In this document: one piece after another, positions 39,102 through 55,596 of the stretch
How positions within the stretch are numbered: the first letter of the stretch is position 1
Layout of the letters: each line of letters opens with the position of its first letter
Assembly: GCA_050246315.1 (NCBI GenBank)
Contig: JBFWWG010000001.1
Span: 608,001 to 672,000, forward strand
DNA: 64,000 nt
Reading direction: 5' to 3'
Origin: Nitrospiraceae bacterium
GTDB taxonomy: Bacteria; Nitrospirota; Nitrospiria; Nitrospirales; Nitrospiraceae
Position numbers and translations under genes: made by a program
The notes under the pieces: model-generated
The model's database searches: none
Told to the model about the DNA's origin: nothing
Seen by the model: the letters and a program-made list of their open reading frames with translations, nothing else

Positions 39102-39118
39102 CTGGCACTTTCCTTGCG
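39102..39118 (+). promoter_or_regulatory. Sigma54 (-24/-12) promoter
   Basis: CTGGCAC-TTTCC-TTGCG matches TGGCAC-N5-TTGC. Confidence 0.75.
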
Positions 39119-39202
39119 AGACCCTGTCATCCAGAATTGCTCTCATCCAGCAGCATTCGAAATGACCGGGAGTGCGCCTCGGTCGAGAGAGGGAGAGGGA
39201 CA

Positions 39203-39577: not shown

Positions 39578-39658
39578 GAGACAGGATGTAGCCCGATCTC
39601 GATCAAGCCCGAATCAGCCATTCATTCGCAGTAAGCAGTGGCGTATAATAGGGGCGCC

Positions 39659-41154: not shown

Positions 41155-41667
41155 TCAGTCCTTCAGCCCGACCATGAACTCACTGAATTGTCGGTTCTGC
41201 AGAACGCCTCCGCCGGGGTGAAACAGCACGACCTGGCCTTCGGCGTTCAGCAGCACATAGGTCGGCGTCGCGTTGATCTTGAACGATTGCGCCACCCACC
41301 GGTCTTCATCGTAGGCGGTCGGGAAGACAAAGGTGTCGGGCCGCCCCTTCACGAATTGCTCGACATTCGTTCTCGTGTCCGCAAATCCGATCGACAGGAT
41401 GCGGAGCGGCGCCGGCTTGCCGCGCCGAGAGAATTCCCCGAGCAGCGGCAAGTCGCGTTGACAGACTCTGCACCAGGGTGCCCAGAAGACTAGCAGAACC
41501 GGCCGTCCCTTGAGCGACTCGTTGCTGTAGGCCTGGCCCGCGAACGTCACCAGTTCGAAGGACGGCGCCGGTGAGTTCAAGGTCGCCGCCTCCGATTCCG
41601 TCGGAATGCAAAGTGCGAATAGACACGCGACAATGCTGAGGCTGATCCAACGCATGGTGACGCTCAT
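41155..41667 (-). CDS. TlpA/redoxin-family exported thiol-disulfide oxidoreductase
   Basis: Signal peptide; APSFEL, LKGRPVLLVFWAPWCRVC, cis-Pro ATPT. Confidence 0.88.
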   Translation of the reverse strand: MSVTMRWISLSIVACLFALCIPTESEAATLNSPAPSFELVTFAGQAYSNESLKGRPVLLVFWAPWCRVCQRDLPLLGEFSRRGKPAPLRILSIGFADTRTNVEQFVKGRPDTFVFPTAYDEDRWVAQSFKINATPTYVLLNAEGQVVLFHPGGGVLQNRQFSEFMVGLKD

Positions 41668-41669
41668 CC

Positions 41670-42149
41670 TCAAGGCTTGATGTACAGATAGCCCTCTCTC
41701 TGTAAGTCCGCGATCCGCTTGACCGCGACCGGATGTAACGTGGCGACAAAGCCCTTCGCCAACTTGTCGATGGTCTTGCCGAACATCTTCATCGAGACTT
41801 GACACATCTCCGCCTTGGCCCCTTTCTCGATGATCTGATCGAACCGTTTCGTCATCTCCGGGTCCATCGTATCCTTCTCGAACAATTCGAGCGCCGGGCC
41901 GTGCACGACCAACTCGACATCGATCTTGTCCGGACCGCCTTCGGCGTCGATATGTTTGTTGATGAGCGCCAGCGCATACTTGGCCACCTCGGGGTCCTTG
42001 CCGTCCACATGATACAGCACCTTGACCTTCTCCTTTGGCGCGTCCGCCGCCAAGGCGTGGCTTGGGGCCAAGGATGTCAAGGCCATGAAGGCCGCTGCCA
42101 CTACTATCATTGTGATGCATAACTGGTTCCTTCTCGATTTCGTCACCAT
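41670..42149 (-). CDS. Exported DsrE/DsrF-like protein
   Basis: Signal peptide; KVLYHVD, ELVVHGPAL, AEMCQVSM, LQREGYLYIKP. Confidence 0.85.
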   Translation of the reverse strand: MVTKSRRNQLCITMIVVAAAFMALTSLAPSHALAADAPKEKVKVLYHVDGKDPEVAKYALALINKHIDAEGGPDKIDVELVVHGPALELFEKDTMDPEMTKRFDQIIEKGAKAEMCQVSMKMFGKTIDKLAKGFVATLHPVAVKRIADLQREGYLYIKP

Positions 42150-42471
42150 GGCTCTCTCCTCTCCATATGAAGGGTCATAATCCCTGCCCGCTCAGGTTCA
42201 TGCATAGATTGTAGTCGCCAATGCTCAGCAGAATACAGAGGATGAGCACGGCGGGAGGAAACTATTCTTCCCCTAGCCGATAGGGGAGAGCACCCCTATC
42301 GGCAATAACCGCGGATGTTGCAGAGAGATCAAACGGTTCACAGTGATGAGGGCAACACCAGATCTCTCGATGCAAGACAAGACTGGTACTCCAAGCCATG
42401 GGTCGGTGGCGCGTCAGGTCGGGAGGCGAGAAGTGGGCTATCTCAGTATAGAGTAGGACTGCTGCCACGTC

Positions 42472-42920
42472 CTATGTGGCTGGCTCTGCACTTGTTGTTT
42501 CTGGAAATTCAGGTAGGTCTAGGCAAGTCTTGTGGTAGGGTCGATCGCCAAAGAATTTCTTCCATTCGTCCTCCTTCGAAAAGTTTCGGTTGGCCATTTT
42601 GCACGCCCGTTCTTTTAGCGATCCAGGATCAAAATCCCACAAGCGGATGCTCCCATCGAAACTCGCAGAGGCAAGCGTGCGGCCATTTGGGCTGAAGGTG
42701 ACGCTTGACACCGTCTTAGTATGGCCTTCGAGGAGAGGTTTGAGGGGTTGGCGGATTTTCACATCCCACAAGCGAACAGTCATGTCTGAACTCGCAGAGG
42801 CAAGGGTACGGCCATCGGGACTGAAAGCGACGCTGAGCACGCTGCTGGTATGACCGGCAAGGGAACCAGTAGGTTGTCTTGTTTTACTATCCCACAAGCG
42901 AACAGTCTTATCGAGACTCG
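42472..42920 (-). pseudogene. 3' remnant of a WD40-repeat protein (C-terminus typical of STAND-NTPase-WD40 proteins), truncated by the RAYT element
   Basis: GHTSSVLSVAFSPDGRTLASASSDMTVRLWD repeats; tail RACKMANRNFS..EWKKFFGDRPYHKTC; frame breaks mid-repeat (SLDKTVRLWD) at ~42920. Confidence 0.85.
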
Positions 42921-43850
42921 TGAGGGTCTATATGAGGGTCAGCATATATGAGGGTCATGTCTTGTAATCACGCAAGACGTTGGCTACATTGGCGCGTCTA
43001 TGGCACGGCCATAGCGCATTGAGTACGCCGGGGCGGTCTATCATGTCACGAGTCGCGGGAACGCGCGGCAGGATGTGGTGGCAGACGACCGAGATCGGGT
43101 CACCTTCCTCGCGCTGCTCGCTCACGTGGTCCATCGCTTTGCATGGCGCTGCCATGCCTATTGCCTGATGGACAATCACTATCATCTCCTTATCGAAACA
43201 CCGCAGCCCAACCTCTCACGGGGTATGCGCCAACTAAATGGACGCTATACCCAAGACCTATAACCGGAAACATCATCGTGTGGGGCATCTGTTCCAGGGG
43301 CGCTTCACCGCGATTCTCGTGGAGAAAGACGCGCATCTCCTCGAGCTCTGTCGCTATGTGGTCCTCAATCCCGTGCGAGCGAGCCTAGTCCCCCATCCGC
43401 GGCTATGGCCGTGGAGTAGTTATCGTGGCACAGTGGGCGAGACGCACGCTCCCCTTTGGCTGACGACAGACTGGATTTTGGGTCAGTTTGGCCAACGAGT
43501 CGGGCCGGCACAAGAGAAGTATCGCTCCTTTGTCGCCGAAGGACGGGGCGGACCCCGGCCGTGGGAGCAGTTGAGGGGGCAGATCTATCTGGGCTCGGAC
43601 AAGTTCATTGCCACCCATCAACCGGATCGGCCTATCCGCGAGATCCCGCGCCGTCAGACACAAGCCCAGCGGCCTTCCTTACAGACGTTATTTCATCGAC
43701 AAAGCGGGACGGCGCGGCAGATCGCTGTGGCCTACCGACGCTATGGTTATCGGCTGACGGAGATCGCGGACCATTTGGGCGTACACTACGCGACGGTGAG
43801 TCGCCGGCTGAGGCAAGTCGAGAGGGAGGATGTGTGATTGCAAGACCCCA
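42920..43850. mobile_element. RAYT (IS200/IS605-superfamily Y1) element with flanking inverted REP-like ends
   Basis: Left GGGTCATGTCTTGTAATCACGCA, preceded by tandem TGAGGGTC repeats; right TGTGTGATTGCAAGACCCC. Confidence 0.75.
43000..43837 (+). pseudogene. REP-associated tyrosine transposase (RAYT) with C-terminal HTH; nonsense codon 5 and frameshift near 43258
   Basis: MARP*RIEYAGAVYHVTSRGN, AYCLMDNHYHLL (HUH), GHLFQGRF, RYVVLNPVRA, WSSY; TAG at 43012-43014. Confidence 0.9.
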
Positions 43851-43952: not shown

Positions 43953-44037
43953 TGTCCAAAGAAATAGACAGTCTAACCGCTTGAAATCTGGTAGAGCGGC
44001 TTTGGTTTCCTGCCCGCACTGTCTAACCGTTTGGAAA
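43953..44037. promoter_or_regulatory. Candidate EBP binding sites (UAS) for the MCO promoter
   Basis: TGTCCA-N6-TAGACA (43953-43970), GTCTAACCGCTTGAAA, TGTCTA-N6-TGGAAA (44020-44037). Confidence 0.55.
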
Positions 44038-44136
44038 TCGCGAGAGCCGAATTCGGTTGGAATCGCGTGATCCGAACGGACCTAACTATTGGTTTTGTCT
44101 GAACAAAGTCATGGGCTGTGGTATCCAACGCCGAGA

Positions 44137-44153
44137 TCGGCACGCAGATTGCG
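44137..44153 (+). promoter_or_regulatory. Sigma54 (-24/-12) promoter of the multicopper oxidase cluster
   Basis: TCGGCACG-CAGA-TTGCG. Confidence 0.7.
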
Positions 44154-44416
44154 CTAAGCCCAAGCCGCCGGTGGAGGTATGGGTGATTAGGACCGGCCTC
44201 CGAATGACCCTGCCCATCACGCGATGGGACCCTCCACCGGCATTAACCGATGATCTCGTGAGGCGCCCAGGGTCAACAGGGAGACGGAACCGACCTGGAG
44301 CGAGACACGGACCAGAGTAGAGGCAGGGTGGAGAGGCAGACAGGGAAGGGTTGCGATCCAAGTCCATACAACCGACCGCGATGTCGCGGTCTTTTTCAAC
44401 ACAAGGAGGCCGTCGT

Positions 44417-47400
44417 ATGACGAGCTTGTTACATCAACATAAGCGAAGGCGCCGCCGGGGGACCTTGTTGCCTCTCCAGGCGGCGTTGCTGGCAGGGAGT
44501 TTGGCCGCAGGCCCAGGACTCTTTGCAGCCGGAGAGGGTGACCTCTCCCATGAAGGCCATGCCACTCCGGTGGCGTTGCCTGGATGGACCCAGGCCCTGA
44601 AGGGCCAGACGGTGGTCGAGGATGCCATCGAAGGGCGGGCCGGCCGTTCGGAGAAGATCGAGCTGCAGCACCATCGGGTCATGCGCAAGATGGAAGAGCA
44701 AATGGCGGCCGATGCGCAGGTGCAGCAGACATCCGGTGCATTCAACGGGATGTCGATGATGCACCAGTACATGGGGCAGGATGGTTCGAGCTTCCTGCTC
44801 ATGACGGACCCGTCCAAGGGAGAGCCTGTCTCCCTGTCAGGCGGCAAGTGCCCGTCCGGGGTACCGACCAAGCAGTATGACATCTCGATGATCAACGTCG
44901 AGGTCACGCTGAATCGCTGGTTGGACTTCTATCCCGGTTACATGTATGCGCTGACCAAGGATCTCGACAAAGTCCGCGCGGAAGAGGCCAAGAACAAGGC
45001 GGCCCGCGAGAAGGATGGGTATGACCCAGGAGCGGTCACGACCGGCCTTCAGGGCGACGCGATTCAGCCGCTGGTGCTCCGAGCCAATCAAGGCGACTGC
45101 GTGAAGTTCACTTTGCGCAACCAGATGGAGGGGGAGGACGGGAGCTTGCACATCCAATCCTCCAGCATGGTCGTCAGTGCCACCGGCAAGGCGGCCACGA
45201 CCACCAATCCGGAGTCCATCGTAGAACCGGGCAAGGCGGTCGAGATGGAATGGTACATCCATCCGGGGACTCAAGAAGGGGTTCGCCAGTTCCACTCCTT
45301 CAGTCATGATCGGGAATTGACGGTGTTGGGATTGTTCGGCGCGTTCGTGATCGAGCCGAAGGGCTCGAAGTATCTGGATCCGCTTGGGACCGGGGCCGCG
45401 CCTGACACGCAGAGCGGCTGGCAGGTCATGATCGACAATGGGACCGGGCCCGACTTCCGCGAGTTCGTGATCTTCTATCACGAGATCGGCGACGAGGCTT
45501 TTCGGCCGGTCAACAAGAAGGGCGACTTCCTCCCGCAGCGCGATCCCTTGACCGATGCCTATCGTCCGGGCGGCCGGGCGATCAACTATCGCAGCGAGCC
45601 ATTCGGGATCGATCAGATGCACCTCCAGCACGAGTACTTCGGCTTCGAGGATGAATCGTTGGCCTACAGCGCCTATACCTTCGGCGATGTGCCGACGACG
45701 ATTCCACGCGGCTACCTCGGCGATCCGGTGAAATGGCGCATCGTGCACGGCGGGTCCGAAGTATTCCATTCGCATCATCCGCATAGCGGATCGATCCGCT
45801 GGCAGCGCAGTCCGGGCACAGAGCCCAATTCGCTCTGGGCCGCTGGGCAGGATGGGCCGGTGAAGTATCCGGTCGTGCGCACCAAGTCCGATCGTGTGGA
45901 CGTGGAAGTGATCGGACCATCCGAAGCGTTGGATCTCGAACCGGAATGCGGTGGTGGTGGATGCCAGCACCTCGCCGGCGAGTTCCTCTTCCACTGCCAC
46001 GTGGCGCATCACTACGTCGCGGGCATGTGGGGCTATGGACGGTTCTACAACACCCTGCAGATGGGGGCCGGTCACACGGACACCATGCCCGACATGCGGG
46101 AGTTGCCGGATCGCGCCGGTCGCATGAAGCTGGGGGTCAGCTCGGCTGAGCTGATCGGCAAGACGATCGACTGGTTCGGGAAGACTTTCAAGATCGTCGA
46201 CAAGAACCAGAAGAGCAACTGGAAGTCTGATCCGGTTGTCGTGAACATCAAGGACTGGGTCGAAATGTTCATCCCGGCGCAAGGCAAGCCGGGCCATACG
46301 GACGACGAGAAGGGCCAGATCATGGCCTACGATGCGACTGTGTGGGATTGGAAGTGGGACGGTAACGTCGCCAAGGGTGAACGGGAAAGCACCACGGTGC
46401 ATCCCAAGTATCCCGCAGCGGCAAAGTGGGACGACAGCACCAGACCGGTGATCCAGTTCGACCCGACCACCGGGAAGATGGCCTGGCCGTTGTTCAAGCC
46501 GCACTACGGCAAGCGGGTGCCGTTCTCGGCCAACCACAGCGGGGCGCCCTGGCTGGAGCCGATCCACCAGGACGAAAACGGTGAGCGCACCTCCGAGCCG
46601 GCCAAGCCTGGCGAGCAGGGCAATTGGTCGCTGTGTCCGGAGAATGCGAACCAGAAATTCTACAACATCCACTTCATCCGGCTGCCGATCACCCTGGCGA
46701 AGAAACAGGGGAACGAGCCTCCAATTGTTGACAAGGACGGGTTGATCTACGTCCTGCACGAGGAGGAGCGGGTGACGCGCGCCAATGATGACCTGAAGTA
46801 TCCCTTGGTCATCCGCGCGAACGTCTACGATTGCGTAGACGTGGTGCTGACCAGCGAGTGGGACGATGACGACTTCACGAATTTCCAAGCGTCGAAGATC
46901 AACATCCATCCCCACTTCTTCCAATTCGACACGGGGAACTCCGACGGCGTGATCTCGGGATTCGAGTACGAGATGTCCACCCGTCCGTTCACGCAGTTCT
47001 CGAAGCCGAAGAAGACCGGTTTGCCGGTTCCGATGAACAGCAAGCTGGTGGAGGGTGTGAAGGCGGGGGCCAAGTCCATCAAGGTGAAGTTGGCCGCCGG
47101 TGCGAGCAAGTATCATGTCAACACCGAAATGCTTGTGGGGGCCGATTGTCTCCGCCCGCACAAGGATCCCTCGGTCTCCGTGGACCGCGATTTCAGTTGT
47201 TCCGAGGTCGCGCGCATCAAGGAGATCAACGGTGACACGCTCACGTTCTTCAAGCCGCTGAAGCACGACCATCCGGCCGGCGATATCGTGACGCCGGAGT
47301 TCGTGCGCTATCGGTGGTGGGTGGACGTGGATATGGGGACCGTGTTCTGGCACGACCATGCGTTCGGCGCCACGACCTGGCCGCACGGCGGGTTCGGCGT

Positions 47401-49369
47401 GACTTTGGTCGAGCCCTTTGGGGCAACGTACCACGATCCCAAGAACGGCAAGAAGGTGTGGAGCGGTCCGATTGCGGACATCCACGCCAATGAGCCGATC
47501 GGCCACGGCGTGAGCGGCAGCTTCCGTGAGCTCATGGTCTCCATCCATGACACGGTGCCGCACACCGTGAACATCATCCAGGCCGGCAACCCGCCCGGGC
47601 AGCCGGTCGAAGTGGCGTTGGAGGCCGGAAAAACCGTGTCCTTCCAGATGCCGGAGAAGATCCAGAATGCGCCGAATCCGTACCTCAACGGCGGCACGCA
47701 TACGACCGGCAGCGGCTTCAACTTCAGGGCCGAGCCGTTCCAACTGCGGCTGAACAACAATCCGGACACGTCGAAGTTGTTCAGCAGCACGATCCATGGA
47801 GACCCGGATACGCCGCTGCTTCGCGCGTACGTCGGTGACACCATGGTGTTCCGGTTGTTGCATCAATTGATGAACGAATCGCACGTGTGGACGATCGCGG
47901 GCCATACCTTCCTCACGGAACGGTACGCCGGGGACGCCAATCGGAAGAACTCGATCCACGTCGGGATCGCCGAGCGGTACGACCTGGTGACCAAGGCCGG
48001 CGGCTTCCAGGGCATGCCGGGTGACTACATCCACTTCAACGGCCGAAGCTCGCACTTCGCCGAAGGCGGATGGGGCATCGTGCGCGTGCTCGACAAGCCG
48101 GTGGCGGATCTGAAGCCGTTGCCGAAGGGTACGAATCCGATAGGGATTCCGCCCATTCCTTCCTCGGTCTGTCCAGCCGGCGCGCCGGCGAAGAACTTCA
48201 ATGTGGTGGCGTTGGATCGCCCGTTGAAGCTGAATCCCAAGGCGCCGGACGCGATCGAGGTGGACTTCGAGCGCAAGATCGAAATGACCGTGCCGGAAGG
48301 CAAGATCTTCGCGCTGGAGGATGAGGTCACCAAGGTGGCGGGGGATGTGATGCCGCATCCGCTCACGCTTCGAGTGAACCTCGGCGACTGCATCAAAGTG
48401 AACCTGAAAAACAAGATGAAGAACAGCCGGGCTTCCTTCTTCGCGCCCGGGCTGGCCTTTGACCCCAGGGATTCACAGGGTCTGAACGTCGGCAACAACG
48501 GCGGCGAGCAGACGGTGGGTTCGGGGGAGAGCCGCACCTACACCTTCTACGCGCATCCAGACAACAAGGAGACGACGTCGCTGGTGTGGGACGGCGGGAA
48601 CATTGTCGTGAATCCGCGCAACGGTCTCTATGGGGCGATCATCGTCGGACCGCGCGGGTCGCAGTACCGCGATCCGGTGAGCGGCGAGGATCTCTCGCAG
48701 AAGAACGCCTGGCGCGCGGACGTGATCGTCGATGCGTCGCTGCCCGAGAACGCGGGCAAGCGGAATTACCGGGATGTGGCCCTCTTCTTCCAGGATGAGG
48801 ACAACATCATCGGCACCGCGTTCATGCCCTATGTCCAGAACGTGGCGGGGTTGACGGCCGTGAACTACCGGTCGGAGCCCTACAAGTTCCGTGAGGAGCA
48901 GGGGTGTAACCTTGGGAAGATCTTCCAGCCTTGCACGGTGGATAAGCCCGAGGATCCGATCACCCCGCTCATCGAAGCGCACGCGGGCGATCCGGTTCGG
49001 ATCCATGTGATCGGCGCCAATAGCGAACAGAACGGCATGTTCTCGGTGGAAGGCCATGAGTGGCCGATCGAGCCCTATATGCCGGGTGCCGACATGATCA
49101 GCACGGTGGAGTACTCCGGGTCTGAAACCCTGGACGTGTTCCTCCGCGGCGGGGCGGGCGGACCGTATCGGTTGGCCGGAGATTACCTCTGGTCCAATCA
49201 GCGGCTCCCGTACACGCAATCCGGACAGTGGGGGTATTTCCGGGTGCTGCCGGCGGGCGATCAGCGGGTCCTCCCGCTGGGAGCGGCTGCGGCGGCAGGC
49301 CGGCGGGCCGAAGCGGAACCGGCACAACCGGTCAGGGAAGCACAGGCAGTTCCCACAGCCGCACGGTAG
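44417..49369 (+). CDS. Very large (~1650 aa) exported multicopper oxidase, MnxG/ceruloplasmin-like multidomain
   Basis: Arg-rich, probably Tat, leader RRRRRGTLL; Cu motifs FHSFSH, HSHHPH, FHCHVAHHYVAGM, INIHPH, FWHDH, ESHVW..GH; SD AAGGAGG. Confidence 0.9.
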   Translation: MTSLLHQHKRRRRRGTLLPLQAALLAGSLAAGPGLFAAGEGDLSHEGHATPVALPGWTQALKGQTVVEDAIEGRAGRSEKIELQHHRVMRKMEEQMAADAQVQQTSGAFNGMSMMHQYMGQDGSSFLLMTDPSKGEPVSLSGGKCPSGVPTKQYDISMINVEVTLNRWLDFYPGYMYALTKDLDKVRAEEAKNKAAREKDGYDPGAVTTGLQGDAIQPLVLRANQGDCVKFTLRNQMEGEDGSLHIQSSSMVVSATGKAATTTNPESIVEPGKAVEMEWYIHPGTQEGVRQFHSFSHDRELTVLGLFGAFVIEPKGSKYLDPLGTGAAPDTQSGWQVMIDNGTGPDFREFVIFYHEIGDEAFRPVNKKGDFLPQRDPLTDAYRPGGRAINYRSEPFGIDQMHLQHEYFGFEDESLAYSAYTFGDVPTTIPRGYLGDPVKWRIVHGGSEVFHSHHPHSGSIRWQRSPGTEPNSLWAAGQDGPVKYPVVRTKSDRVDVEVIGPSEALDLEPECGGGGCQHLAGEFLFHCHVAHHYVAGMWGYGRFYNTLQMGAGHTDTMPDMRELPDRAGRMKLGVSSAELIGKTIDWFGKTFKIVDKNQKSNWKSDPVVVNIKDWVEMFIPAQGKPGHTDDEKGQIMAYDATVWDWKWDGNVAKGERESTTVHPKYPAAAKWDDSTRPVIQFDPTTGKMAWPLFKPHYGKRVPFSANHSGAPWLEPIHQDENGERTSEPAKPGEQGNWSLCPENANQKFYNIHFIRLPITLAKKQGNEPPIVDKDGLIYVLHEEERVTRANDDLKYPLVIRANVYDCVDVVLTSEWDDDDFTNFQASKINIHPHFFQFDTGNSDGVISGFEYEMSTRPFTQFSKPKKTGLPVPMNSKLVEGVKAGAKSIKVKLAAGASKYHVNTEMLVGADCLRPHKDPSVSVDRDFSCSEVARIKEINGDTLTFFKPLKHDHPAGDIVTPEFVRYRWWVDVDMGTVFWHDHAFGATTWPHGGFGVTLVEPFGATYHDPKNGKKVWSGPIADIHANEPIGHGVSGSFRELMVSIHDTVPHTVNIIQAGNPPGQPVEVALEAGKTVSFQMPEKIQNAPNPYLNGGTHTTGSGFNFRAEPFQLRLNNNPDTSKLFSSTIHGDPDTPLLRAYVGDTMVFRLLHQLMNESHVWTIAGHTFLTERYAGDANRKNSIHVGIAERYDLVTKAGGFQGMPGDYIHFNGRSSHFAEGGWGIVRVLDKPVADLKPLPKGTNPIGIPPIPSSVCPAGAPAKNFNVVALDRPLKLNPKAPDAIEVDFERKIEMTVPEGKIFALEDEVTKVAGDVMPHPLTLRVNLGDCIKVNLKNKMKNSRASFFAPGLAFDPRDSQGLNVGNNGGEQTVGSGESRTYTFYAHPDNKETTSLVWDGGNIVVNPRNGLYGAIIVGPRGSQYRDPVSGEDLSQKNAWRADVIVDASLPENAGKRNYRDVALFFQDEDNIIGTAFMPYVQNVAGLTAVNYRSEPYKFREEQGCNLGKIFQPCTVDKPEDPITPLIEAHAGDPVRIHVIGANSEQNGMFSVEGHEWPIEPYMPGADMISTVEYSGSETLDVFLRGGAGGPYRLAGDYLWSNQRLPYTQSGQWGYFRVLPAGDQRVLPLGAAAAAGRRAEAEPAQPVREAQAVPTAAR

Positions 49370-49397
49370 TCCGGTTCTGACAGAGCAGTGAGGACCT

Positions 49398-49440
49398 GGG
49401 GGAGCTGCGTGGAGTCCATGCGGCTCCCCCGTTCTCTTTT
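49398..49440 (+). terminator. Hairpin/terminator after the MCO gene
   Basis: GGGGGAGCTGCGTGG-AGT-CCATGCGGCTCCCCC followed by a T-rich tail. Confidence 0.55.
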
Positions 49441-49587
49441 AGAACGTAAAGGGTTGAGTATTGGGGATCACGTGCTGGATGAGCGAAGGTTGGTGTGCAG
49501 ACGAGAGAATCACCGAAGGCTGTTCTTCGGCGGCGTCCATGAAGGGGGGCGTCGCCCAGTGAGCCGCCGGTTCTAGCAAAGCTTGGT

Positions 49588-50544
49588 ATGGAGGCCGGAA
49601 TGGGTAGTCACACAATGACCAGATGGGTAGCGGTGTTGGTGCTGGGGGGGTGGCTATGGGCTGGTCAAGCCCGTGCCTATGAAGAGATCACCGTATCGGA
49701 CGGTGGGACCGTCACCGGGGTCGTCACGCTTGACGGAAAGGTTCCTAAGCCCAAGGGGTACAACTTGACGACGTTGCCGGACCCGTTTTACTGCGGGCGC
49801 ATCTCGGATGGGGCGGGCTGGCGCATCTTGCAGCCGTTTCAGGTTGGGCCGGGAGGCGAGTTTCGCGATGTCGTCGTCTACTTGGAAGGCATTGAAAAAG
49901 GCAAGCCCTTTGAGGACACGGGGATCCCGCAGATCGAAGCGAAAGATTGTCTCTTCGTCCCGTTCACGACGGTGGTCCGGGACAGTCAAACGGTGACGGT
50001 GGTCAACATGGACCCCGTCATGCACGACATTCAAGCTTACGAAACCTCGCATTTGGGTCCGCGCGTGCTGTTCAACGTGCCGCTGCCGATGAACCCGCAG
50101 CATCCGCGTGAGTTGAAAGATCGGACCGACGCCGGCCTGTATCACCGGCATATGGCCGGCGCGCCGATGAAGCAACTGGTCAATCTCAGCAAGGGGCGCC
50201 GAATCTTCGTCATGCAGTGCGGCTTCCATGCCTACATGGAGAGCTGGGGTCTGGCCGTGATGAACCCCTACTTCGCTAAGACGGACGAGCGAGGCCGGTT
50301 CACCCTGTCGGATGTGCCGCCGGGTACCTACAAACTGGTCGTCTGGCACCCCTATGTTCGTTCGGCGACGGAACGAACCGTGACCATCGGTCCGAAGGAG
50401 AAGGTAGACGTGACGATTGCGGTCTCGGCCCCAACGGGGAGGCTCTATGCCAACGAGGTGTTGGATCATCCGTACAATCGTTACAGCGTGACCGAGGAAA
50501 CGCAGCAGGAAATCGATCCCCTGCTGCAGAAGCAGGATCGCTGA
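49588..50544 (+). CDS. Exported protein with a carboxypeptidase-regulatory-like domain and an internal cupredoxin-like copper site
   Basis: Signal peptide; GGTVTGVV, DVVVYLEG, MHDIQ, QCGFHAYM, TDERGRFTLSDVPPGTYKLVVWHP. Confidence 0.8.
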   Translation: MEAGMGSHTMTRWVAVLVLGGWLWAGQARAYEEITVSDGGTVTGVVTLDGKVPKPKGYNLTTLPDPFYCGRISDGAGWRILQPFQVGPGGEFRDVVVYLEGIEKGKPFEDTGIPQIEAKDCLFVPFTTVVRDSQTVTVVNMDPVMHDIQAYETSHLGPRVLFNVPLPMNPQHPRELKDRTDAGLYHRHMAGAPMKQLVNLSKGRRIFVMQCGFHAYMESWGLAVMNPYFAKTDERGRFTLSDVPPGTYKLVVWHPYVRSATERTVTIGPKEKVDVTIAVSAPTGRLYANEVLDHPYNRYSVTEETQQEIDPLLQKQDR

Positions 50545-50784
50545 ACATAGCCAAGACGTTGATGGTCAACGGTCGGTCGTGATGTCGTTCGTCTGGGAAT
50601 GAGGCTTGACGAATGATGATGATTCAGAGGACGCCGCTGTTGCGAGGACGGTCCAGGCAGCCGATCGGCGAATGCGCCGGAGGTCTGGATACCGTGGACG
50701 AATCGATCGTTCGATGGAGCTGGCTCGTCCTGGGATGGGGTGCGGTCACGTCTGTCGTTCTGCAGGGTGACGAGGAGGCCGAAC

Positions 50785-51786
50785 ATGAAACCGAATGAAA
50801 CCGATGTGCTCAAGGTCGTGGATAAGGTCGCCACGTTGTTGCTGGGGCTGGCCGTCCTCCTGATGGTGGCCAGCGTGGCATGGGGGCTGGATACGCAGGA
50901 CATCAGCGTCGAGTGGACGCCGGAGGGAAAGCGTCTGGCGATGGAGCGGGCCGCGCTTCCGACCAACGATGTGATGGTCCGCATCCCGGCCGGTGAGTTC
51001 CTGATGGGGAGTGTGCGCCAGGTGGATCGCAACGCCTACCCTGCCGAGTTCCCGCAGCGCCGCGTTTGGCTGGATGCCTACGATATCGACAAGTACGAGG
51101 TGACGGCGCTCCAGTACCTGAAGTTCGTCGTGGCCACCGACCGCCAGCCGCTGTTGGACTGGCGCTACGACGGGGGCAATTTTCAGGAGAACATGGCGCA
51201 TCATCCAGTCATGCACGTGACCTGGTTTGACGCCGATGCCTATTGCAAGTGGGCCGGCAACCGGCTTCCGACCGAAGCGGAGTGGGAAAAAGCGGCCCGA
51301 GGCGAAGACGGTCGTATTTTTCCCTGGGGCAATCAGATGGCCGGGTTGACGCGAGCCAACTACGGCCGGACCGGCCTATCTGGCCCGGTCCGCGATCGCC
51401 CGGAGCGGCTGCTGCTCTATCCTCCGATCATCAGCGTCGAGAAGTATGAGAACTCGGTCAGTCCCTACGGGCTTCATCAAATGGCCGGGAATGTCGCCGA
51501 ATGGGTGGCGGATTGGTACGACCGGGAGTACTACAAATCGGCGTCCGAACGAAATCCCAAGGGGCCTGACTCGGGCACAAACCGAGCCTTCCGCGGCGGT
51601 GGATGGATCGACAGCACTCCGACGGTTCGGGTGGCGCAGCGCAACGGGTCGCCGCCGGATACGAAAATGAACTGGCTTGGATTCCGGTGCGCTCGCGACG
51701 CGCAGGAATCATCGGGTGCGAAACTCTCCCTGGCTCAGCCCGAGAGAATAGGGCCGGCCGACGCCGGACCGAGCAGCGTGCGATGA
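50785..51786 (+). CDS. FGE-sulfatase (SUMF1/NirV/PvdO-like) domain protein
   Basis: IPAGEFLMGS, DKYEVT, PV..VTW.DA.AYCKWAG.RLPTEAEWEKAARG, MAGNVAEW, RGGGW, GFRCA. Confidence 0.92.
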   Translation: MKPNETDVLKVVDKVATLLLGLAVLLMVASVAWGLDTQDISVEWTPEGKRLAMERAALPTNDVMVRIPAGEFLMGSVRQVDRNAYPAEFPQRRVWLDAYDIDKYEVTALQYLKFVVATDRQPLLDWRYDGGNFQENMAHHPVMHVTWFDADAYCKWAGNRLPTEAEWEKAARGEDGRIFPWGNQMAGLTRANYGRTGLSGPVRDRPERLLLYPPIISVEKYENSVSPYGLHQMAGNVAEWVADWYDREYYKSASERNPKGPDSGTNRAFRGGGWIDSTPTVRVAQRNGSPPDTKMNWLGFRCARDAQESSGAKLSLAQPERIGPADAGPSSVR

Positions 51787-51800
51787 TCGACCAGGGGTGA

Positions 51801-51905
51801 TTCGTCAACCGTCATCCGCCACAGGTCAATCGAAAGGAAGCGGAGGCGATGAAGGAGATCCGGTCTCTTCCGAAAATGACGATTGGCCATTGACGGCTGA
51901 TGTCG
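51801..51905. repeat. Heptamer repeat inverted array
   Basis: CGTCAAC CGTCATC CGCCACA GGTCAAT ... AATGACG ATTGGCC ATTGACG GCTGATG. Confidence 0.55.
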
Positions 51906-51969
51906 GTGGTGCACGGCGATTGCCGCAGACATGTTGATGAATCGTGTGGGCGCGATGAGGAGACGACTC

Positions 51970-52725
51970 ATGGCGATCATGCCGCCCGATGTCGAGTCGA
52001 GGCTTCAGCAGATTCGCAACGATCTGGATCTCCAGTTGGTGCACAGCCAATATTGGCTGCAGGATGAATTCGTCGTGCTCGACAAATTGCTGCCGCAGGA
52101 TCTGATGGATGCGATCGTGGCCGAAGCCAGGCTTGTTCAACCCAGCATGAACCGCAATTACGTCCCGGGTCACAAGAAGGGCGGGAGCGTCAGTTTCTAC
52201 ACCTTGCGGGAACAGGCGCCGGCCACGCTCAGCCTGTACCGGTCCTCGGCCTGGCGGTGGCTCCTGAGCCGCATCACGGAATCGGATCTCCTATTGTGTC
52301 CAGAGGACGATCCCCATTCCTGCGCGCTCTATTACTACACCAAGCCCGGTGATCACATCGGATTCCACTACGATACCTCCTACTACAAAGGCCAGCGGTA
52401 CACCGTGCTGATCGGCTTGGTCGAACGATCGGACCATTGCCGACTGGTGGCCCGGGTCCGCACCAAAGGTCAGGCGGAAGAGATCAGGGAGACCAGGATT
52501 CCCATGGGGCCGGGCGCGGTCGTCCTGTTCAACGGCGATCGACTCTGGCACGCCGTGACTCCCTTGGCGGAGGGAGAAGAGCGCATCGTGCTGACGTTGC
52601 AATATGTGACGAATCAGGCGATGGGACCGGCGAAGCGTCTGTTCTCGAACTTGAAGGACGCCTTTGCCTACTTTGGACCGGCCGTGTTGGCGCGGCGCCG
52701 ATCCGGGACTGCCGGGGGAACGTGA
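51970..52725 (+). CDS. 2OG-Fe(II) oxygenase (HxD...H; hydroxylase-type)
   Basis: YYTKPGDHIGFHYD, FNGDRLWHAVTP, EERIVL; SD GAGGAG. Confidence 0.82.
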   Translation: MAIMPPDVESRLQQIRNDLDLQLVHSQYWLQDEFVVLDKLLPQDLMDAIVAEARLVQPSMNRNYVPGHKKGGSVSFYTLREQAPATLSLYRSSAWRWLLSRITESDLLLCPEDDPHSCALYYYTKPGDHIGFHYDTSYYKGQRYTVLIGLVERSDHCRLVARVRTKGQAEEIRETRIPMGPGAVVLFNGDRLWHAVTPLAEGEERIVLTLQYVTNQAMGPAKRLFSNLKDAFAYFGPAVLARRRSGTAGGT

Positions 52726-52847
52726 CCACGCGATCGCACAGGAGGGATGACGGGCGAACGAAACGACTGTGACACGACGAAACAGGCGCTCGGGGCCGGC
52801 CGAACGTTCATGCAATGCACCGATCTCATTCGAGGAGAGACACGAGC

Positions 52848-53546
52848 ATGGACAACCGGCGGTATCGCGAGACATGGATCTGTGTGGGTGTGATCGTGGT
52901 CGTGCTGGGCCTGACAGGGTGGCAGCCTGCCCGGGCGCAGGACGAACTCGGCAACATGGTGTTTTTCAGGGGCGGCTATGTGTACATGTTCAGCGATCGG
53001 GCGAATGAAATTTTCACCGACACGCAGAATGCGTTGGGGCAGGGGAACAATACGGGCGATCAGGGGTGGTATGTCGGGGCCGGACTCGATTTGGTCCTCT
53101 CGAAGGACACCTGGGGGGCGATGAGCAAGACCTGGGTAGTGGGGGAGATTGGTCTGCAATTCAATCGGTTGAACTCGAAGACCGTCACCAGCGCGGTCCC
53201 GACGCTGACGGCACTCGCCGGTGTGCCGCTTGGCGGAGGGACGACGCCGGCTCAGACACAATTGACGATGGTGACGATCAATGTGGCGCCGAAGATCAAG
53301 TTCATGGAAGGGAGCCGGTTTCGCCCCTGGATTATTCCGGTCGGATTGGACATCCACGTCATGAGTCCGCCTTCCAATCAAACGCAGTACCTGGACGTGG
53401 GCGTGCAGTTCGGGGCCGGGTTCGAGTTTCAACTCTGGAAGGCCTTCAAGCTCGGCGCGGATGCCCGGTACCATTTGACCGCCAACCTGACCAACACGAC
53501 GAACAACTATTTCCAGGCGGGACCGTACGTGGGCATTTCGTTTTGA
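52848..53546 (+). CDS. Outer membrane beta-barrel (porin-like) protein
   Basis: Signal peptide AQD; GWYVGAGLD, VAPKIKF, GVQFGAGFEF, LGADARYHL; terminal Phe. Confidence 0.8.
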   Translation: MDNRRYRETWICVGVIVVVLGLTGWQPARAQDELGNMVFFRGGYVYMFSDRANEIFTDTQNALGQGNNTGDQGWYVGAGLDLVLSKDTWGAMSKTWVVGEIGLQFNRLNSKTVTSAVPTLTALAGVPLGGGTTPAQTQLTMVTINVAPKIKFMEGSRFRPWIIPVGLDIHVMSPPSNQTQYLDVGVQFGAGFEFQLWKAFKLGADARYHLTANLTNTTNNYFQAGPYVGISF

Positions 53547-53585
53547 TCTGACAGGCGGGGTTCCATCGCCATGGGAGGATCGGCA

Positions 53586-54122
53586 ATGCGCCTCGACGTT
53601 CGTGTTCCGGCCGCCGCTGTTTGTGAGCGGCGGAACCTGTTCCTGCTGATGTTGGCCGCTTGTGCCGAGATGCATGACAGAGGGAGCCCCGGCGAAACGA
53701 TCGCGACGCTGGATGACTTTCCCGCGCAACTGGATCTGGCGTTAGACCTGGTCGAAGCCGTGAAGCCGCTTCCATCGGTCCGGGCGACCATGAATGGTCG
53801 CCCGGTCGCCAACCTCACCAGACTGTGGCACACGCTCTCGTGCTATCGCGAAAGCTTGGGCGAGACGGATCCCCGGACATTCTGCAGGAGGCAAGCCGTG
53901 CGCGTCGGTGGGACAGGGGGCTGTCCTGATCCCGCCTGCGGCTCGTCCTGCTCCTTCATCTGCGCCCGGTGCTGCCAGCTTGTCGGAGAGGAGGGGCAGA
54001 GGCCGAGCGGGGATCGCCTGTCCAGGGTCGCGGTCGATGCGGAAGTGGACTGGTGTCCCAATCTGCCCTTGTTCCGTTCGAATGAGAACCGGGAGGTCCA
54101 GGATGAACACGATTTACTATGA
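53586..54122 (+). CDS. Cys-rich hypothetical protein
   Basis: SD GGAGG; CPDPACGSSCSFICARCC and WCPNL cluster; overlaps the next gene. Confidence 0.55.
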   Translation: MRLDVRVPAAAVCERRNLFLLMLAACAEMHDRGSPGETIATLDDFPAQLDLALDLVEAVKPLPSVRATMNGRPVANLTRLWHTLSCYRESLGETDPRTFCRRQAVRVGGTGGCPDPACGSSCSFICARCCQLVGEEGQRPSGDRLSRVAVDAEVDWCPNLPLFRSNENREVQDEHDLL

Positions 54123-55032
54123 GGCTCCCTTCAGCGACGACATCAGACGGCAGCAGCTTTTCAGCGGGCAATTGTTCGTCTATGCTCCCCGTCCCAGCAC
54201 CATCGCCTTTTGTGACTTTGCCAGGACACTCATCCAGGAGGCGTTTGGAACCCTCTATCCGCCCACGGCGCAGCACCATCTCTCGGTGGAGCAGTACGCG
54301 GGCATTCTCGGGAAGCTCAAGCCGCGGTTTATTCATCACGCGGAATCGAAGAAACATATCCAAAACATTTTCTCCGAGATGGGCTGCGACTTGACCAAGT
54401 CCTTTTTCGATGTGCCGAAAATGCGAAGCTCGACGAGCGACAACTACCTCACGACGGGCATCGCCTATGCCTGGCATCCCCATCGGGACACCTGGTATGC
54501 CGCGCCGGACTGCCAGATCAATTGGTGGATTCCGATCTATGACATCGAGTCCCACAATGCCATGGCCTTTCATCCCTGTTACTGGAACCGCCCGGTGCGG
54601 AATACGTCGAGCGGCTACAACTACTATCAATGGAACCAACTCCACCGGGGGGAGCATGTCGCGCAGTATCTGACGGAAGATCCGCGTCCTCTGCCTCGCC
54701 CCAGCGAACCGTTCGAGCGCGAGCCGGAGATCCGCTTGATTTGTCCCGCCGGCGGGATCATCCTGTTCGCCGCCGCGCAGATGCATTCGAGCGTGCCCAA
54801 TACGTCGGGGCGGACCAGGTTCAGCATCGACTTCAGGACGGTGCATCTCGACGATGTCCTTGCCAAGCGTGGCGCGCCGAACCTGGATAACGAGTCGACC
54901 GGGACGGTCATGAGGGACTACCTCCGCGCATCGGATTTCTCGCGCCTTCCCGACGAGGTCGTAGCGCTCTACGACGACGAATCCGGAAGCTCCGGCGAAC
55001 TGGTCTATCGAGACCGAGAACAGGGTGTCTGA
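54103..55032 (+). CDS. 2OG-Fe(II) oxygenase-fold protein (PhyH-like)
   Basis: WHPHRDTWY (HxD), INWWIP, MHSSVPN.SG.TRFSIDFR (distal His + RxS). Confidence 0.75.
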   Translation: MNTIYYEAPFSDDIRRQQLFSGQLFVYAPRPSTIAFCDFARTLIQEAFGTLYPPTAQHHLSVEQYAGILGKLKPRFIHHAESKKHIQNIFSEMGCDLTKSFFDVPKMRSSTSDNYLTTGIAYAWHPHRDTWYAAPDCQINWWIPIYDIESHNAMAFHPCYWNRPVRNTSSGYNYYQWNQLHRGEHVAQYLTEDPRPLPRPSEPFEREPEIRLICPAGGIILFAAAQMHSSVPNTSGRTRFSIDFRTVHLDDVLAKRGAPNLDNESTGTVMRDYLRASDFSRLPDEVVALYDDESGSSGELVYRDREQGV

Positions 55033-55119
55033 CGCCGTTCCGCCCGGTGACCTGTGTGAATGTCGAAGCGAGGGACGCTTCCGACGGGCTTGCGACGCTT
55101 CACGAACGACGAGTTGCGA

Positions 55120-55596
55120 ATGACGATGGTGCTGACCTGGCTGCACGTTCTTGCTGCGGTCAGTTGGATCGGAGGCATGATCTTCTTGTCGGTGGTCGTC
55201 GTGCCGGCCATTCGGACACCGCCCTTGGCTCAGCAACGAGCGGTCCTCTTCCCCATCGTGGCCCGCCGATTTCGCCTCGTGGCCTGGGGAGCCATGCTGC
55301 TGTTGCTGGTGACCGGACCTATTCTCGCCGCCGGGCGCGGTATCTCTCTCATCAATCCAACCACTTGGCCCTCTGTCTTTACGATCAAGCTGACCCTCGT
55401 TGGTCTCCTGCTTGGACTGACGACTGCGCACGATCTTGCGTTGGGTCCTCGTGTGGCGGAGATCATGAAACGACCGGAGCCGGAACGCTCCACATCAGAA
55501 TTGCTGCTCCTTCGGTGGTCTCCCTGGGTGGCCCGAAGTTCGCTGCTGCTGGCCTTGGCCGTCCTGTTTTCGGCTGTCTCTCTGGCGAGGAGCTAG
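55120..55596 (+). CDS. CopD/DUF4149-like inner membrane protein
   Basis: WLHVLAAVSWIGGMIFL, KLTLV..L...HD; about 4 TM helices. Confidence 0.75.
   Translation: MTMVLTWLHVLAAVSWIGGMIFLSVVVVPAIRTPPLAQQRAVLFPIVARRFRLVAWGAMLLLLVTGPILAAGRGISLINPTTWPSVFTIKLTLVGLLLGLTTAHDLALGPRVAEIMKRPEPERSTSELLLLRWSPWVARSSLLLALAVLFSAVSLARS

Follow-up and report, generated by a model that had tools for sequence, protein, structure and literature searches.

A Nitrospira-type locus centred on a giant multicopper oxidase

We examined a 64,000-nucleotide (nt) stretch of the genome of a Nitrospiraceae bacterium (GenBank assembly GCA_050246315.1, contig JBFWWG010000001.1, positions 608,001 to 672,000), hereafter called the window, which is a segment of a Nitrospira-type genome with a G+C content of ~61%. 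Between positions 43953 and 55596, its plus strand carries a control region followed by eight co-oriented open reading frames (ORFs), namely the gene of a giant multicopper oxidase (MCO) and seven genes downstream of it (Table 1). A first-pass annotation, made from the letters alone, had read this run as a sigma-54-controlled envelope system for metal oxidation or copper acquisition, equipped with its own electron shuttle and maturation factors; every sequence feature that it listed was found in its place in the window. On balance, we interpret the locus as that of a Nitrospira MCO of the MnxG type, subject to control at three levels and accompanied by two partners, a cupredoxin and a protein with the fold of formylglycine-generating enzyme (FGE).

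A genome scan yielded at least 835 confirmed relatives of the MCO. For the comparison of gene neighbourhoods we used the window together with 62 MCO loci (L001-L062), 63 sources in all, in which genes were called with a codon-usage model and then clustered into families. The 62 loci come nearly all from a single family, the Nitrospiraceae, and all but two are labelled Nitrospira-type. Partner counts given out of 31 refer to the genomes that have an MCO gene with the leader RNA described below and at least 7 kb of downstream sequence. One source, a 1983-nt contig binned with the Gemmatimonadaceae (L032), holds a fragment 88% identical to the Nitrospira MCO, most likely through a binning error rather than gene transfer.

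The MCO resembles MnxG and is predicted to have six cupredoxin domains

The ORF of the MCO (44351-49369) could encode 1672 amino acids (aa) from a TTG codon. Because Met23 (ATG at 44417) is kept in 42 of 42 orthologues, we assigned the start to this ATG, which gives a protein of 1650 aa; residue numbers below are counted from the TTG. Domain 2 contains the motifs HxxHxH (residues 473-478) and HCHxxxHxxxxM (548-559), the latter being the single type-1 (T1) copper motif of the whole protein, and domain 3 contains HPH (853-855) and HDH (1001-1003). The set of eight His residues for a trinuclear cluster is complete, with motifs of the C-terminal type in domain 2 and of the N-terminal type in domain 3. 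The T1 and trinuclear-cluster ligands are invariant in 23 homologues with identities down to 35%, and again in a set of 40 with identities down to ~32-35%. Near the N-terminus, the residues H67, H70, H107, H108, M111, M134, M136, M137, H138 and M141 are 88-100% conserved. These observations confirm the first-pass description of a ~1650-aa MCO with one T1 motif, several HxH and HxxHxH motifs and a His/Met-rich N-terminus.

When the protein was compared with the PDB sequences by phmmer, MnxG (9bxa_A) was the only match (E 1.7e-81), and a profile built from the 23-member family matched the same chain with an E value of 2e-236. In hhalign comparisons of sub-alignments, domains A, C and E were related to one another with probabilities of 99.6-100%, and domains B, D and F with probabilities of 99.9-100%. 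The MCO is thus predicted to consist of six cupredoxin domains arranged in three two-domain units. An AlphaFold2 (AF2) model of residues 430-1629 (pLDDT 88.8, pTM 0.89) gave MnxG as the best Foldseek match (E 4.6e-74, TM 0.63/0.62), followed by ceruloplasmin and the coagulation factors V and VIII; domain 1, which lies outside the model, is supported by a Pfam Cu-oxidase_3 match and by the alignment with MnxG. The earlier suspicion of a large MCO of the MnxG type is borne out by sequence, profile and structure comparison alike, and the AF2 fold places the protein nearest to MnxG and then to ceruloplasmin.

The family is large, with 1767 representatives at E values up to 1e-3 in a library clustered at 50%, many of them 1400-2500 aa long. 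Orthologues of ~1640 aa occur across Nitrospira with identities of 68-90%; among the matches listed, the nearest to the window protein are those of Nitrospiraceae metagenome-assembled genomes (MAGs) and of N. tepida (87-90% identity). Representative P0121 (53% identity) falls together with Nitrospinota proteins of ~1640 aa, that of N. gracilis among them, and a protein of Ca. Manganitrophus sp. SA1 belongs to the P0121 group at ~60% identity. Judged by these comparisons, the orthologue group spans Nitrospira, Nitrospinota and Ca. Manganitrophus.

We propose that the MCO is an exported protein of six cupredoxin domains, with one type-1 copper and with a trinuclear cluster between domains 2 and 3, which would work in the periplasm, taking single electrons from a metal-ion substrate and reducing O2 to water. 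The foremost candidate for this substrate is Mn(II); the first-pass annotation had left the substrate open.

A cupredoxin and an FGE-fold protein are the conserved neighbours of the MCO

Across the loci, the MCO gene is commonly preceded by genes for an activator, a PAS kinase, a receiver and a second activator, in this order, and followed by the cupredoxin gene, one or two FGE-fold genes and a variable set. Of the 44 MCO genes with at least 1.3 kb of downstream sequence, 36 have the cupredoxin gene directly after them, and the first four genes after the MCO include an FGE-fold gene in 27 of 35 cases. Around leader-bearing MCO genes, the cupredoxin was found in 28 and the FGE-fold protein in 27 of the 31 genomes; the corresponding counts are 14/31 for the CopD-like gene, 13/31 for the outer-membrane protein (OMP) gene and 4/31 for the first 2-oxoglutarate (2OG) oxygenase gene. 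The Cys-rich gene was recorded in 6/31 by the gene caller and in 11 loci by tblastn, and the second oxygenase-like gene (g7) was detected by tblastn in 0/62 loci. Thus, of the co-oriented run that had been proposed as a cluster, the cupredoxin and FGE-fold genes stand as its conserved part, and the oxygenase, OMP, CopD-like and Cys-rich genes do not. We regard the genes for the OMP, the Cys-rich lipoprotein-like protein and the CopD-like protein as common extras that a locus can do without, and the two oxygenase-like genes as bystanders.

The 314-aa product of the first conserved partner gene has a signal peptide, an N-terminal T1 cupredoxin domain and a C-terminal CarboxypepD_reg beta-sandwich. 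Pfam reported no cupredoxin domain in this protein. Its metal-binding loop is of the amicyanin type, C-x2-H-x2-M, in which C207, H210 and M213 are invariant, and H142 is near-invariant, among 29 sequences with identities down to 26%. Foldseek comparison of an AF2 model (pLDDT 75.2) returned amicyanin (1sfd_A; E 4.1e-5, probability 1.00, TM(target) 0.67) and a purple cupredoxin (5fc9_A; TM(target) 0.69, rmsd 3.9). The protein carries a type-1 copper ligand set and is predicted to bind copper; the ligands, the model and the Foldseek matches together confirm the cupredoxin-bearing exported protein noticed at first pass.

The second partner belongs to the FGE-fold family over its full length and matches FGE entries of the PDB with E values of ~4e-36, so that the fold assigned earlier holds. 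Its catalytic cysteines are another matter. Aligned with human FGE, the protein shows Asp and a gap where the cysteines of SYMCHRSYCYRYR would fall, and within the 59-member family only the structural residues Cys169 and Cys317 are conserved. Since both catalytic, copper-binding cysteines are missing, we ruled out that the protein is a formylglycine-generating enzyme, and for the same reason the 'maturation factor' of the first-pass annotation is only a guess. FGE-fold proteins of these loci fall into two paralogue groups, of which the window has one.

We suggest that the cupredoxin fusion and the one or two FGE-fold proteins without catalytic cysteines would be functionally linked to the MCO. 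Electron exchange most likely takes place between the cupredoxin and the T1 site of the MCO, and the FGE-fold protein may play a part like that of NirV next to NirK, assisting a copper enzyme.

The pairing of MCO and cupredoxin genes is also seen in a second locus type, in which two paralogous giant MCOs lie ~7-9 kb apart (L016, L018, L023, L026, L031, L033, L038, L047, L050 and L051). Here the cupredoxin gene follows the second MCO copy wherever downstream sequence is present. The leader RNA stands on one of the two MCO genes only, and the covariance model described below found no leader element before the paralogous second copies. Several loci of this type also encode a 213-aa protein and a HEAT-repeat protein at a greater distance downstream, and some carry MutL-like, DUF6754 and Memo-like genes upstream in place of the two-component module. 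A single distant locus, from a Chloroflexota MAG (L061), encodes an MCO of 1425 aa with 43% identity. Neither the cupredoxin nor the FGE-fold family of Nitrospira is present at L061; a 407-aa protein of the plastocyanin/azurin family (L061:8544-9767; Pfam E 9.7e-16) ends 75 nt before the MCO. This locus is a single independent instance of a giant MCO with a blue-copper protein as its neighbour.

A predicted sigma-54 promoter with conserved upstream sites and an adjacent regulator module

The control region contains a -24/-12 element preceded by two upstream activator sites (Table 1). Taken alone, the -24/-12 element is not above chance, with 31 matches in the window at up to two mismatches compared with 25.4 expected. 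In 55 of 59 sources, however, its core GGCAY-N5-TTGC stands upstream of the leader at a constant spacing, in surroundings that are not alignable between loci. Over the 230 nt that precede the promoter, 39 loci together contain 63 half-sites TGTCYAA/TTRGACA; 200 mononucleotide shuffles of those regions contained 2.0 on average and never more than 7. The UAS-like palindromes of the first-pass annotation are present, and both sites are conserved in position across loci.

Upstream of the control region lie genes for a PAS-domain sensor kinase, a stand-alone receiver protein and an activator of the sigma-54 enhancer-binding protein (EBP) type, whose N-terminal domain is weakly PAS-like (PAS_4, E 0.0054, below the cutoff). 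The kinase family (F5) is found upstream of the MCO in many loci, typically in the order F1 F5 F1 F1 before the MCO, and tblastn detected a homologue of the activator upstream of the MCO in 41 of the 62 loci. The kinase/receiver arrangement recurs in N. moscoviensis (L014), where the module reads: an EBP with a receiver domain, PAS kinase, receiver, and a second EBP without a receiver domain. Gene calls and family scans of the window did not find the first EBP of this module.

In other loci the activator gene directly adjoins the MCO, whereas in the window the two are separated by a 2.7-kb insertion that leaves the upstream sites intact. The thioredoxin-like and DsrE-like ORFs of this insertion lie on the minus strand in two different frames and are possibly one frameshifted gene or two genes. 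The insertion also carries a 126-aa ORF of no family and, at 43238-43837, the remnant of a REP-associated tyrosine transposase with a helix-turn-helix (HTH). In tblastn searches of the 62 loci, neither the thioredoxin-like ORF nor the 126-aa ORF had a homologue in any locus, and the 199-aa ORF of the insertion matched only distant positions in L002 and L003.

A scan of positions 43000-57000 found no sigma-70 promoter, and no rpoN gene lies within the window. Sigma-54 control, as claimed at first pass, is backed by the conserved promoter, by the upstream sites and by the adjacent activator gene. As the first level of control, we propose that the sigma-54 promoter would be activated from the two TGTC-N10-GACA sites by the neighbouring PAS-kinase/receiver/EBP module. 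The DNA elements and the genes themselves are evident in the sequence; presumably it is the EBP that acts on these sites.

A conserved structured leader RNA is complementary to the MCO ribosome-binding site

Between the promoter and the MCO gene lies a structured leader RNA of ~85 nt. It is composed of an 11-bp closing stem, P1 (44167-44177 paired with 44231-44241), a second stem around an almost invariant region of 28 nt, and a variable hairpin. The invariant core, GGACCGGCCUCCGA, holds an anti-Shine-Dalgarno sequence at 44193-44202. In the alignment, 97.6% of the cells at paired positions are standard pairs, compared with 40-57% in slid controls, and 13 of 24 pairs show changes on both sides, compared with 6.4 in shuffles; 0 of 500 shuffles reached any of the observed covariation measures. 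A covariance model found one plus-strand copy before the MCO in 59 of the 63 sources (the window and 58 of the 62 loci), with scores of 65-103 bits on the plus strand vs ~16-25 bits on the minus strand. The loci without a match are L030, L032, L058 (no upstream sequence) and L061 (Chloroflexota).

None of the 4227 families of Rfam 15 matched the leader in the window at the gathering score, a search of 43900-44450 at E values up to 10 returned chance-level matches only, and we found no description of this RNA in the literature. The leader is a well-supported candidate for a new family of cis-regulatory RNAs and may represent a riboswitch class.

Within the core, CCGGCCUCC is the complement of an extended Shine-Dalgarno sequence, GGAGGCCG, which recurs in the window before the MCO (44405-44412), the cupredoxin (49590-49597) and the FGE-fold gene (50774-50781), in the latter two just ahead of the ATG starts at 49600 and 50785. 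Across the sample, an in-frame GGAGGCC ribosome-binding site (RBS) precedes 54 of 69 MCO genes (78%), 19 of 53 cupredoxin genes (36%) and 20 of 70 FGE-fold genes (29%) vs 8 of 515 other genes (1.6%). The extended Shine-Dalgarno sequence follows the leader in 55 of 59 sources, and AGGCC boxes are enriched in the middle of the 5′ untranslated region (UTR; 0.95 vs 0.16 per UTR). When the RBSs of the window were ranked by pairing with the leader core, those of the MCO, cupredoxin and FGE-fold genes took the second to fourth places of 30. In the minimum free energy (MFE) fold of the window UTR, the leader is kept closed.

A hairpin followed by a U-run lies just 5′ of the MCO ribosome-binding site in the window, and hairpins of different sequence were seen by eye at the same place in other loci. 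We considered this element as an attenuator and dropped the idea, as inspection by eye showed the U-run to be missing from many other loci.

As the second level of control, the structured leader at the 5′ end of the mRNA would pair through CCGGCCUCC with GGAGGCCG. The observed structure and complementarity suggest that the leader may serve as a riboswitch-like or factor-dependent translation switch, which might have a ligand.

A conserved hairpin separates the MCO from the downstream genes

A terminator-like hairpin comes directly after the MCO stop codon. Of 48 loci, 41 keep this hairpin and 37 have the T-rich tail behind it. Its stem sequence (GGGGAGC/GCUCCCC) is conserved, beyond the structure alone, and the hairpin might be more than a terminator. 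A gap of ~230 nt separates the MCO stop from the cupredoxin start, and no second sigma-54 element was found between the two genes in the 8 loci examined.

This conserved hairpin makes it doubtful that the genes form one long operon, and the MCO is probably expressed mainly from a transcript of its own; the downstream genes would need read-through or another promoter. The hairpin, the ~230-nt gap and the variable gene content all speak against a single operon from the MCO to the CopD-like gene. The eight-gene co-oriented unit of the first-pass annotation is not conserved as a whole, and the hairpin argues against its simple co-transcription. As the third level of control, we propose that the hairpin would uncouple the downstream genes from the MCO or attenuate them.

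Optional downstream genes and other features of the window

Among the remaining downstream genes, g4 can be kept as one of the two 2OG-Fe(II) oxygenases previously named, given its HalD match above the curated cutoff. The other, g7, cannot: its PhyH score (21.5 bits vs a cutoff of 22) was obtained on the long ORF, and the protein read from its likely start at 54103 has no Pfam match at E 1e-5. The proposed OMP, g5, is present, with a signal-peptide-like N-terminus and a C-terminal Phe, and its Pfam match is weak and below the cutoff. The Cys-rich protein, g6, proved to be a real conserved ORF by its tblastn matches in 11 loci, and has no match in Pfam, NCBIfam, PDB or Atlas. For the CopD-like protein, g8, the Pfam match passes its cutoff narrowly and the NCBIfam CopD equivalog match does not (31.2 bits vs 195); weaker matches are to UPF0093 and DUF4149.

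Just beyond the run, a 154-aa ORF at 55697-56161 matches, over its last ~60 residues, the C-terminal (SPASM) part of models resembling radical-SAM heme synthases; it is probably a gene remnant, with the rest of the enzyme missing. It is adjoined by a hemerythrin-domain gene at 56696-57307, and hemerythrin and Crp-family genes (F26 and F21) lie downstream of the cluster in several loci. Far upstream, three cobalamin riboswitches (3335-3528, 6714-6972 and 9195-9408; Rfam, 78-91 bits) precede genes for a FecCD permease and two TonB-dependent receptors, and the genes at 4398-19374 form a cobalamin salvage and lower-ligand set of CobQ, CobO, CobU, CobT, CobS, CobD, an aminotransferase and CbiZ.

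Table 1 Features of the MCO locus, its control region and the adjacent regulator module, in order of position in the window
Feature	Position	Strand	Evidence and remarks
Sensor histidine kinase, three PAS domains, 793 aa	36528..38909	+	Pfam PAS, HisKA and HATPase_c; family F5
Stand-alone receiver-domain protein	38975..39577	+	Pfam Response_reg, E 1.4e-22
Sigma-54 enhancer-binding protein, AAA+ and Fis-type HTH	39638..41062	+	Pfam Sigma54_activat, E 4e-68; HTH_8
Insertion between activator gene and MCO control region	41155..43837		Thioredoxin-like and DsrE-like ORFs, REP-transposase remnant
Upstream activator site 1, palindrome TGTC-N10-GACA, TGTCCAAAGAAATAGACA	43953-43970	+	Sequence; ~-185 from the -24 element in most loci
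Upstream activator site 2, degenerate copy of the same palindrome, TGTCTAACCGTTTGGAAA	44020-44037	+	Sequence; conserved half-site at ~-116 in many loci
Sigma-54 -24/-12 promoter element, CGGCACGCAGATTGCG	44138-44153	+	Conserved core at fixed distance before the leader
Conserved structured leader RNA, ~85 nt	44160..44254	+	Alignment, RNAalifold, covariation, covariance model
Hairpin just 5′ of the ribosome-binding site, then U-run in the window	44374..44391	+	Terminator-like scan; MFE fold of the UTR
Extended Shine-Dalgarno sequence of the MCO, GGAGGCCG	44405..44412	+	Complementary to the leader core
Six-domain MnxG-type MCO (predicted), 1650 aa	44417..49369	+	Twin-arginine-like signal, His/Met-rich N-terminus, one T1 site, trinuclear ligands
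Terminator-like hairpin GGGGAGC...GCUCCCC and U-rich tail	49397..49431	+	Directly after the MCO stop
Exported cupredoxin protein, 314 aa	49600..50544	+	Pfam, AF2, Foldseek, ligand conservation; RBS GGAGGCCG at 49590
FGE-fold exported protein without both catalytic cysteines	50785..51786	+	Pfam PF03781, E 3.8e-58, full length; RBS GGAGGCCG at 50774
2OG-Fe(II) oxygenase-like protein (g4), HalD-like	51931..52725	+	Pfam HalD, E 1.3e-10, above curated cutoff
Small outer-membrane beta-barrel-like protein (g5)	52815..53546	+	Pfam OMP_b-brl, 22.7 bits vs cutoff 28.7
Cys-rich protein (g6), lipobox-like LAAC	53571..54122	+	Conserved ORF, no family
Weakly PhyH-like protein (g7)	54103..55032	+	Window-specific, outside the conserved cluster
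CopD-like small integral membrane protein (g8), 178 aa	55060..55596	+	Pfam CopD, 33.0 bits vs cutoff 32.1

Discussion

As an enzyme, the MCO is known but uncharacterised. It is not an unrecognised enzyme, since it has figured in the literature from 2013 onwards as a putative Mn-oxidising MCO and was later named MnxG. In the parts of the work of Luecker 2013 available to us (PMC3578206), a putative periplasmic MCO similar to MnxG of Bacillus SG-1, highly conserved in Ca. N. defluvii, is described and a defence against reactive oxygen species (ROS) based on Mn(III) is proposed. The same source places the N. gracilis MCO gene in a cluster of nitrite oxidoreductase (NXR) and electron-carrier genes and mentions 'cupredoxin-like' genes in the NXR cluster, which may belong to the family of the window cupredoxin. 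In a Pacific mesopelagic metaproteome, a Nitrospina protein called MnxG is reported, in the accessible part, as the second most abundant oxidoreductase of that group, with a correlation to O2 of r = -0.47 and co-occurrence with NxrA in the oxygen-depleted region (PMC9477243). According to the part seen of a sand-filter study, mnxG occurs in all of its Nitrospira MAGs (bioRxiv 10.1101/2024.12.25.630300). In the portions of the literature that we could consult, we found no description of the sigma-54 promoter, the upstream sites, the leader, the terminator or the cupredoxin and FGE-fold partners. Thus, the control region, the leader RNA and the conserved partner set appear to be new elements.

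We suggest that the core system would consist of the sigma-54 module, the leader RNA, the MnxG-type MCO, the cupredoxin and the FGE-fold protein. The envelope metal-oxidation or copper-acquisition system envisaged at first pass survives in this form as regards a large MnxG-type MCO with a conserved cupredoxin as a possible electron shuttle; the eight-gene unit does not survive, and the maturation factors are only a guess. On the proposed interpretation, the sigma-54/PAS module and the leader RNA should both respond to a physiological signal. The cupredoxin and the FGE-fold protein become candidate partner proteins of the MCO, which may explain why the MCO is uncharacterised on its own.

Several points weigh against an MnxG-type MCO that is controlled at three levels and served by these two partners. 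Because the loci are almost all from Nitrospiraceae, the conservation counts are not independent events. The conserved terminator may mean that the partner genes are expressed independently of the MCO, and only about one-third of the cupredoxin and FGE-fold genes bear the extended Shine-Dalgarno sequence. The leader core and the Shine-Dalgarno sequence are both invariant, which leaves no covariation to speak for their pairing, and the first rank in predicted pairing with the core (-30.4 kcal/mol) goes to the RBS of the unrelated cobO gene (12780-12804, GGGAGGUCGGUCGG), probably by chance. As to the enzyme, the MCO scores 101.3 bits against the cutoff of 3100 for the Pseudomonas-type MnxG (NCBIfam NF041487), and its twin-arginine signal is a by-eye reading, with no Tat-signal match in NCBIfam. 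No counterpart of MnxE or MnxF was found, as the seven downstream proteins give other Pfam and NCBIfam families only; a comparison of the second and sixth proteins of the run (g2 and g6) with the PDB sequences likewise matched no Mnx chain. Moreover, the authors of the sand-filter study (bioRxiv 10.1101/2024.12.25.630300) state that whether an MCO oxidises Mn is poorly predicted by homology, and the parts available to us of this study, of PMC3578206 and of PMC9477243 give no measured activity for the MCO orthologue group.

The most serious alternative is that the locus serves copper homeostasis or acquisition, with the MCO as a cuprous or ferrous oxidase of the CueO/PcoA kind whose N-terminal Met and His residues capture Cu(I), and with the cupredoxin-like protein, the Cys-rich lipoprotein, the OMP and the CopD-like protein as neighbours that move copper through the envelope. 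MCOs that handle Cu(I) have Met-rich regions, which the conserved His/Met-rich segment of the MCO may resemble, and the protein gives a very weak match to the NCBIfam model copper_res_A (E 0.0034). This explanation could also account for the CopD-like and OMP genes in the 14 and 13 of 31 genomes in which they accompany the MCO; however, more than half of the loci lack these genes, and likewise the Cys-rich gene, and the CopD match itself is marginal on both models. The nearest solved or profile relative of the MCO is MnxG, not CueO or CopA, and next to the cluster the window has no gene for CopC, CusF, a P-type ATPase or a regulator of the CueR/CopRS type. We therefore regard the copper explanation as unlikely.

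A second alternative is a periplasmic electron sink or respiratory branch, in which electrons that ultimately derive from nitrite oxidation would reach the T1 site of the MCO through the cupredoxin. The MCO would then reduce O2 as a cupredoxin:O2 oxidoreductase instead of oxidising metals, so as to scavenge O2 or ROS or to balance redox state. It would fit the placement of the N. gracilis MCO in the NXR cluster (PMC3578206, as far as seen) and the abundance, O2 correlation and NxrA co-occurrence of the Nitrospina protein (PMC9477243, likewise). It would also fit the conservation of a T1 cupredoxin beside the MCO and the presence of a different one beside the Chloroflexota homologue; the window cluster, however, is not near nxr genes. 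To our knowledge, no MCO has been shown to work as a respiratory oxidase, and O2 reduction in the periplasm would add nothing to the proton-motive force. An electron sink thus seems very unlikely to us.

The least probable alternative is that the MCO is a stand-alone gene with neighbours by descent, whose conservation would stem from the narrow phylogenetic sampling and not from function, and with a leader that is a 5′ stabilising stem-loop; the terminator-like hairpin, the almost uniform Nitrospira-type origin of the loci, the varying gene content beyond the cupredoxin and FGE-fold genes and a next gene other than the cupredoxin in 8 of 44 cases all point that way, but it leaves unexplained the enrichment of the extended Shine-Dalgarno sequence on precisely these three families, the survival of the MCO-cupredoxin pairing in the rearranged two-MCO locus type, and an almost invariant unpaired core of 28 nt within an unalignable flanking UTR, which is more than a stabiliser needs.

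The interpretation that we prefer, an MnxG-type MCO under three-level control with cupredoxin and FGE-fold partners, could be extended further, to a form that we consider distinctly unlikely as it stands. In this extension, the leader would be a new riboswitch or factor-binding RNA class that senses a metal ion or a redox-linked metabolite as the cue for nitrite oxidisers to produce the MCO, and that co-ordinates the translation of the MCO, the cupredoxin and the FGE-fold protein via GGAGGCCG, and the MCO and the cupredoxin would be an electron-transfer pair tied to energy or redox metabolism. If so, the MCO would be more than a detoxifying oxidase, and the ligand of the leader would give direct access to the function of an oxidoreductase reported to rank among the most abundant of dark-ocean Nitrospinae. 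Metal-ion oxidation could then feed a periplasmic carrier, a question that has been asked of the MCOs of Ca. Manganitrophus: the part of PMC9040806 available to us describes two novel MCOs per genome, which could support lithotrophy only if the electrons reach a periplasmic carrier.

Comparison with known systems

The MCO family and the sigma-54 logic of the locus have precedents. The closest are the putative Mn oxidases of Nitrospina and Nitrospira, which belong to the same orthologue group, with the MCO loci of N. defluvii and N. moscoviensis being 83-84% identical; as far as we could see, the papers on them discuss only the enzyme, ROS defence or Mn cycling. MnxG of Bacillus sp. PL-12 (9bxa) shares the six cupredoxin domains and the unusual arrangement of HxxHxH and HCH motifs in domain 2 before the HxH motifs of domain 3, at a structure-based identity to the window MCO of ~20%. 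The two differ in several respects. The Nitrospira MCO is ~420 aa longer, owing to the His/Met-rich N-terminus, a linker of ~185 aa after domain 2 and an insert in domain 3. In the alignment, domain 2 of the Bacillus protein has HCHLYPAFGIGM and lacks the His that the Nitrospira MCO retains four residues after HCH. Whereas the Bacillus Mnx complex has an MnxE3F3 ring, the window cluster has no homologue of MnxE or MnxF, and whereas the Bacillus enzyme is a spore exosporium protein, the Nitrospira MCO carries a predicted periplasmic export signal.

In Pseudomonas putida GB-1, the sigma-54-dependent regulator MnxR and the kinases MnxS1 and MnxS2 control mnxG and mcoA, which have sigma-54 sites, as described in the accessible part of PMC13689576. 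That system is similar in its very large MnxG-like MCO, its sigma-54 promoter, its sensor kinases and activator and the copper-related accessory genes of its gene clusters. The accessory genes there are of the SCO1/SenC type, in contrast to the cupredoxin and FGE-fold genes of the window, and the P. putida MnxG belongs to a different subfamily, as seen from the 101 bits of the window MCO against 3100. Unlike in the P. putida pathway, the window activator has no recognisable receiver domain, and no leader RNA has been reported there.

The partner set recalls nirK-nirV with amicyanin or pseudoazurin, where an FGE-fold gene and a small blue-copper protein likewise stand beside a multi-copper redox enzyme. 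NirV has the FGE fold. The window cupredoxin, however, carries a CarboxypepD_reg beta-sandwich as a fused second domain, which makes the protein roughly three times as large as amicyanin. NirV accompanies NirK in ~61% of genomes and is not mandatory (PMC4770552, as far as seen).

The leader, finally, shares with Shine-Dalgarno-sequestering riboswitches a covarying multi-stem 5′ UTR, a conserved unpaired core and complementarity to the ribosome-binding site. It differs from known riboswitches in having no Rfam match, in lying behind a sigma-54 promoter and in that the same Shine-Dalgarno sequence recurs beyond the terminator.

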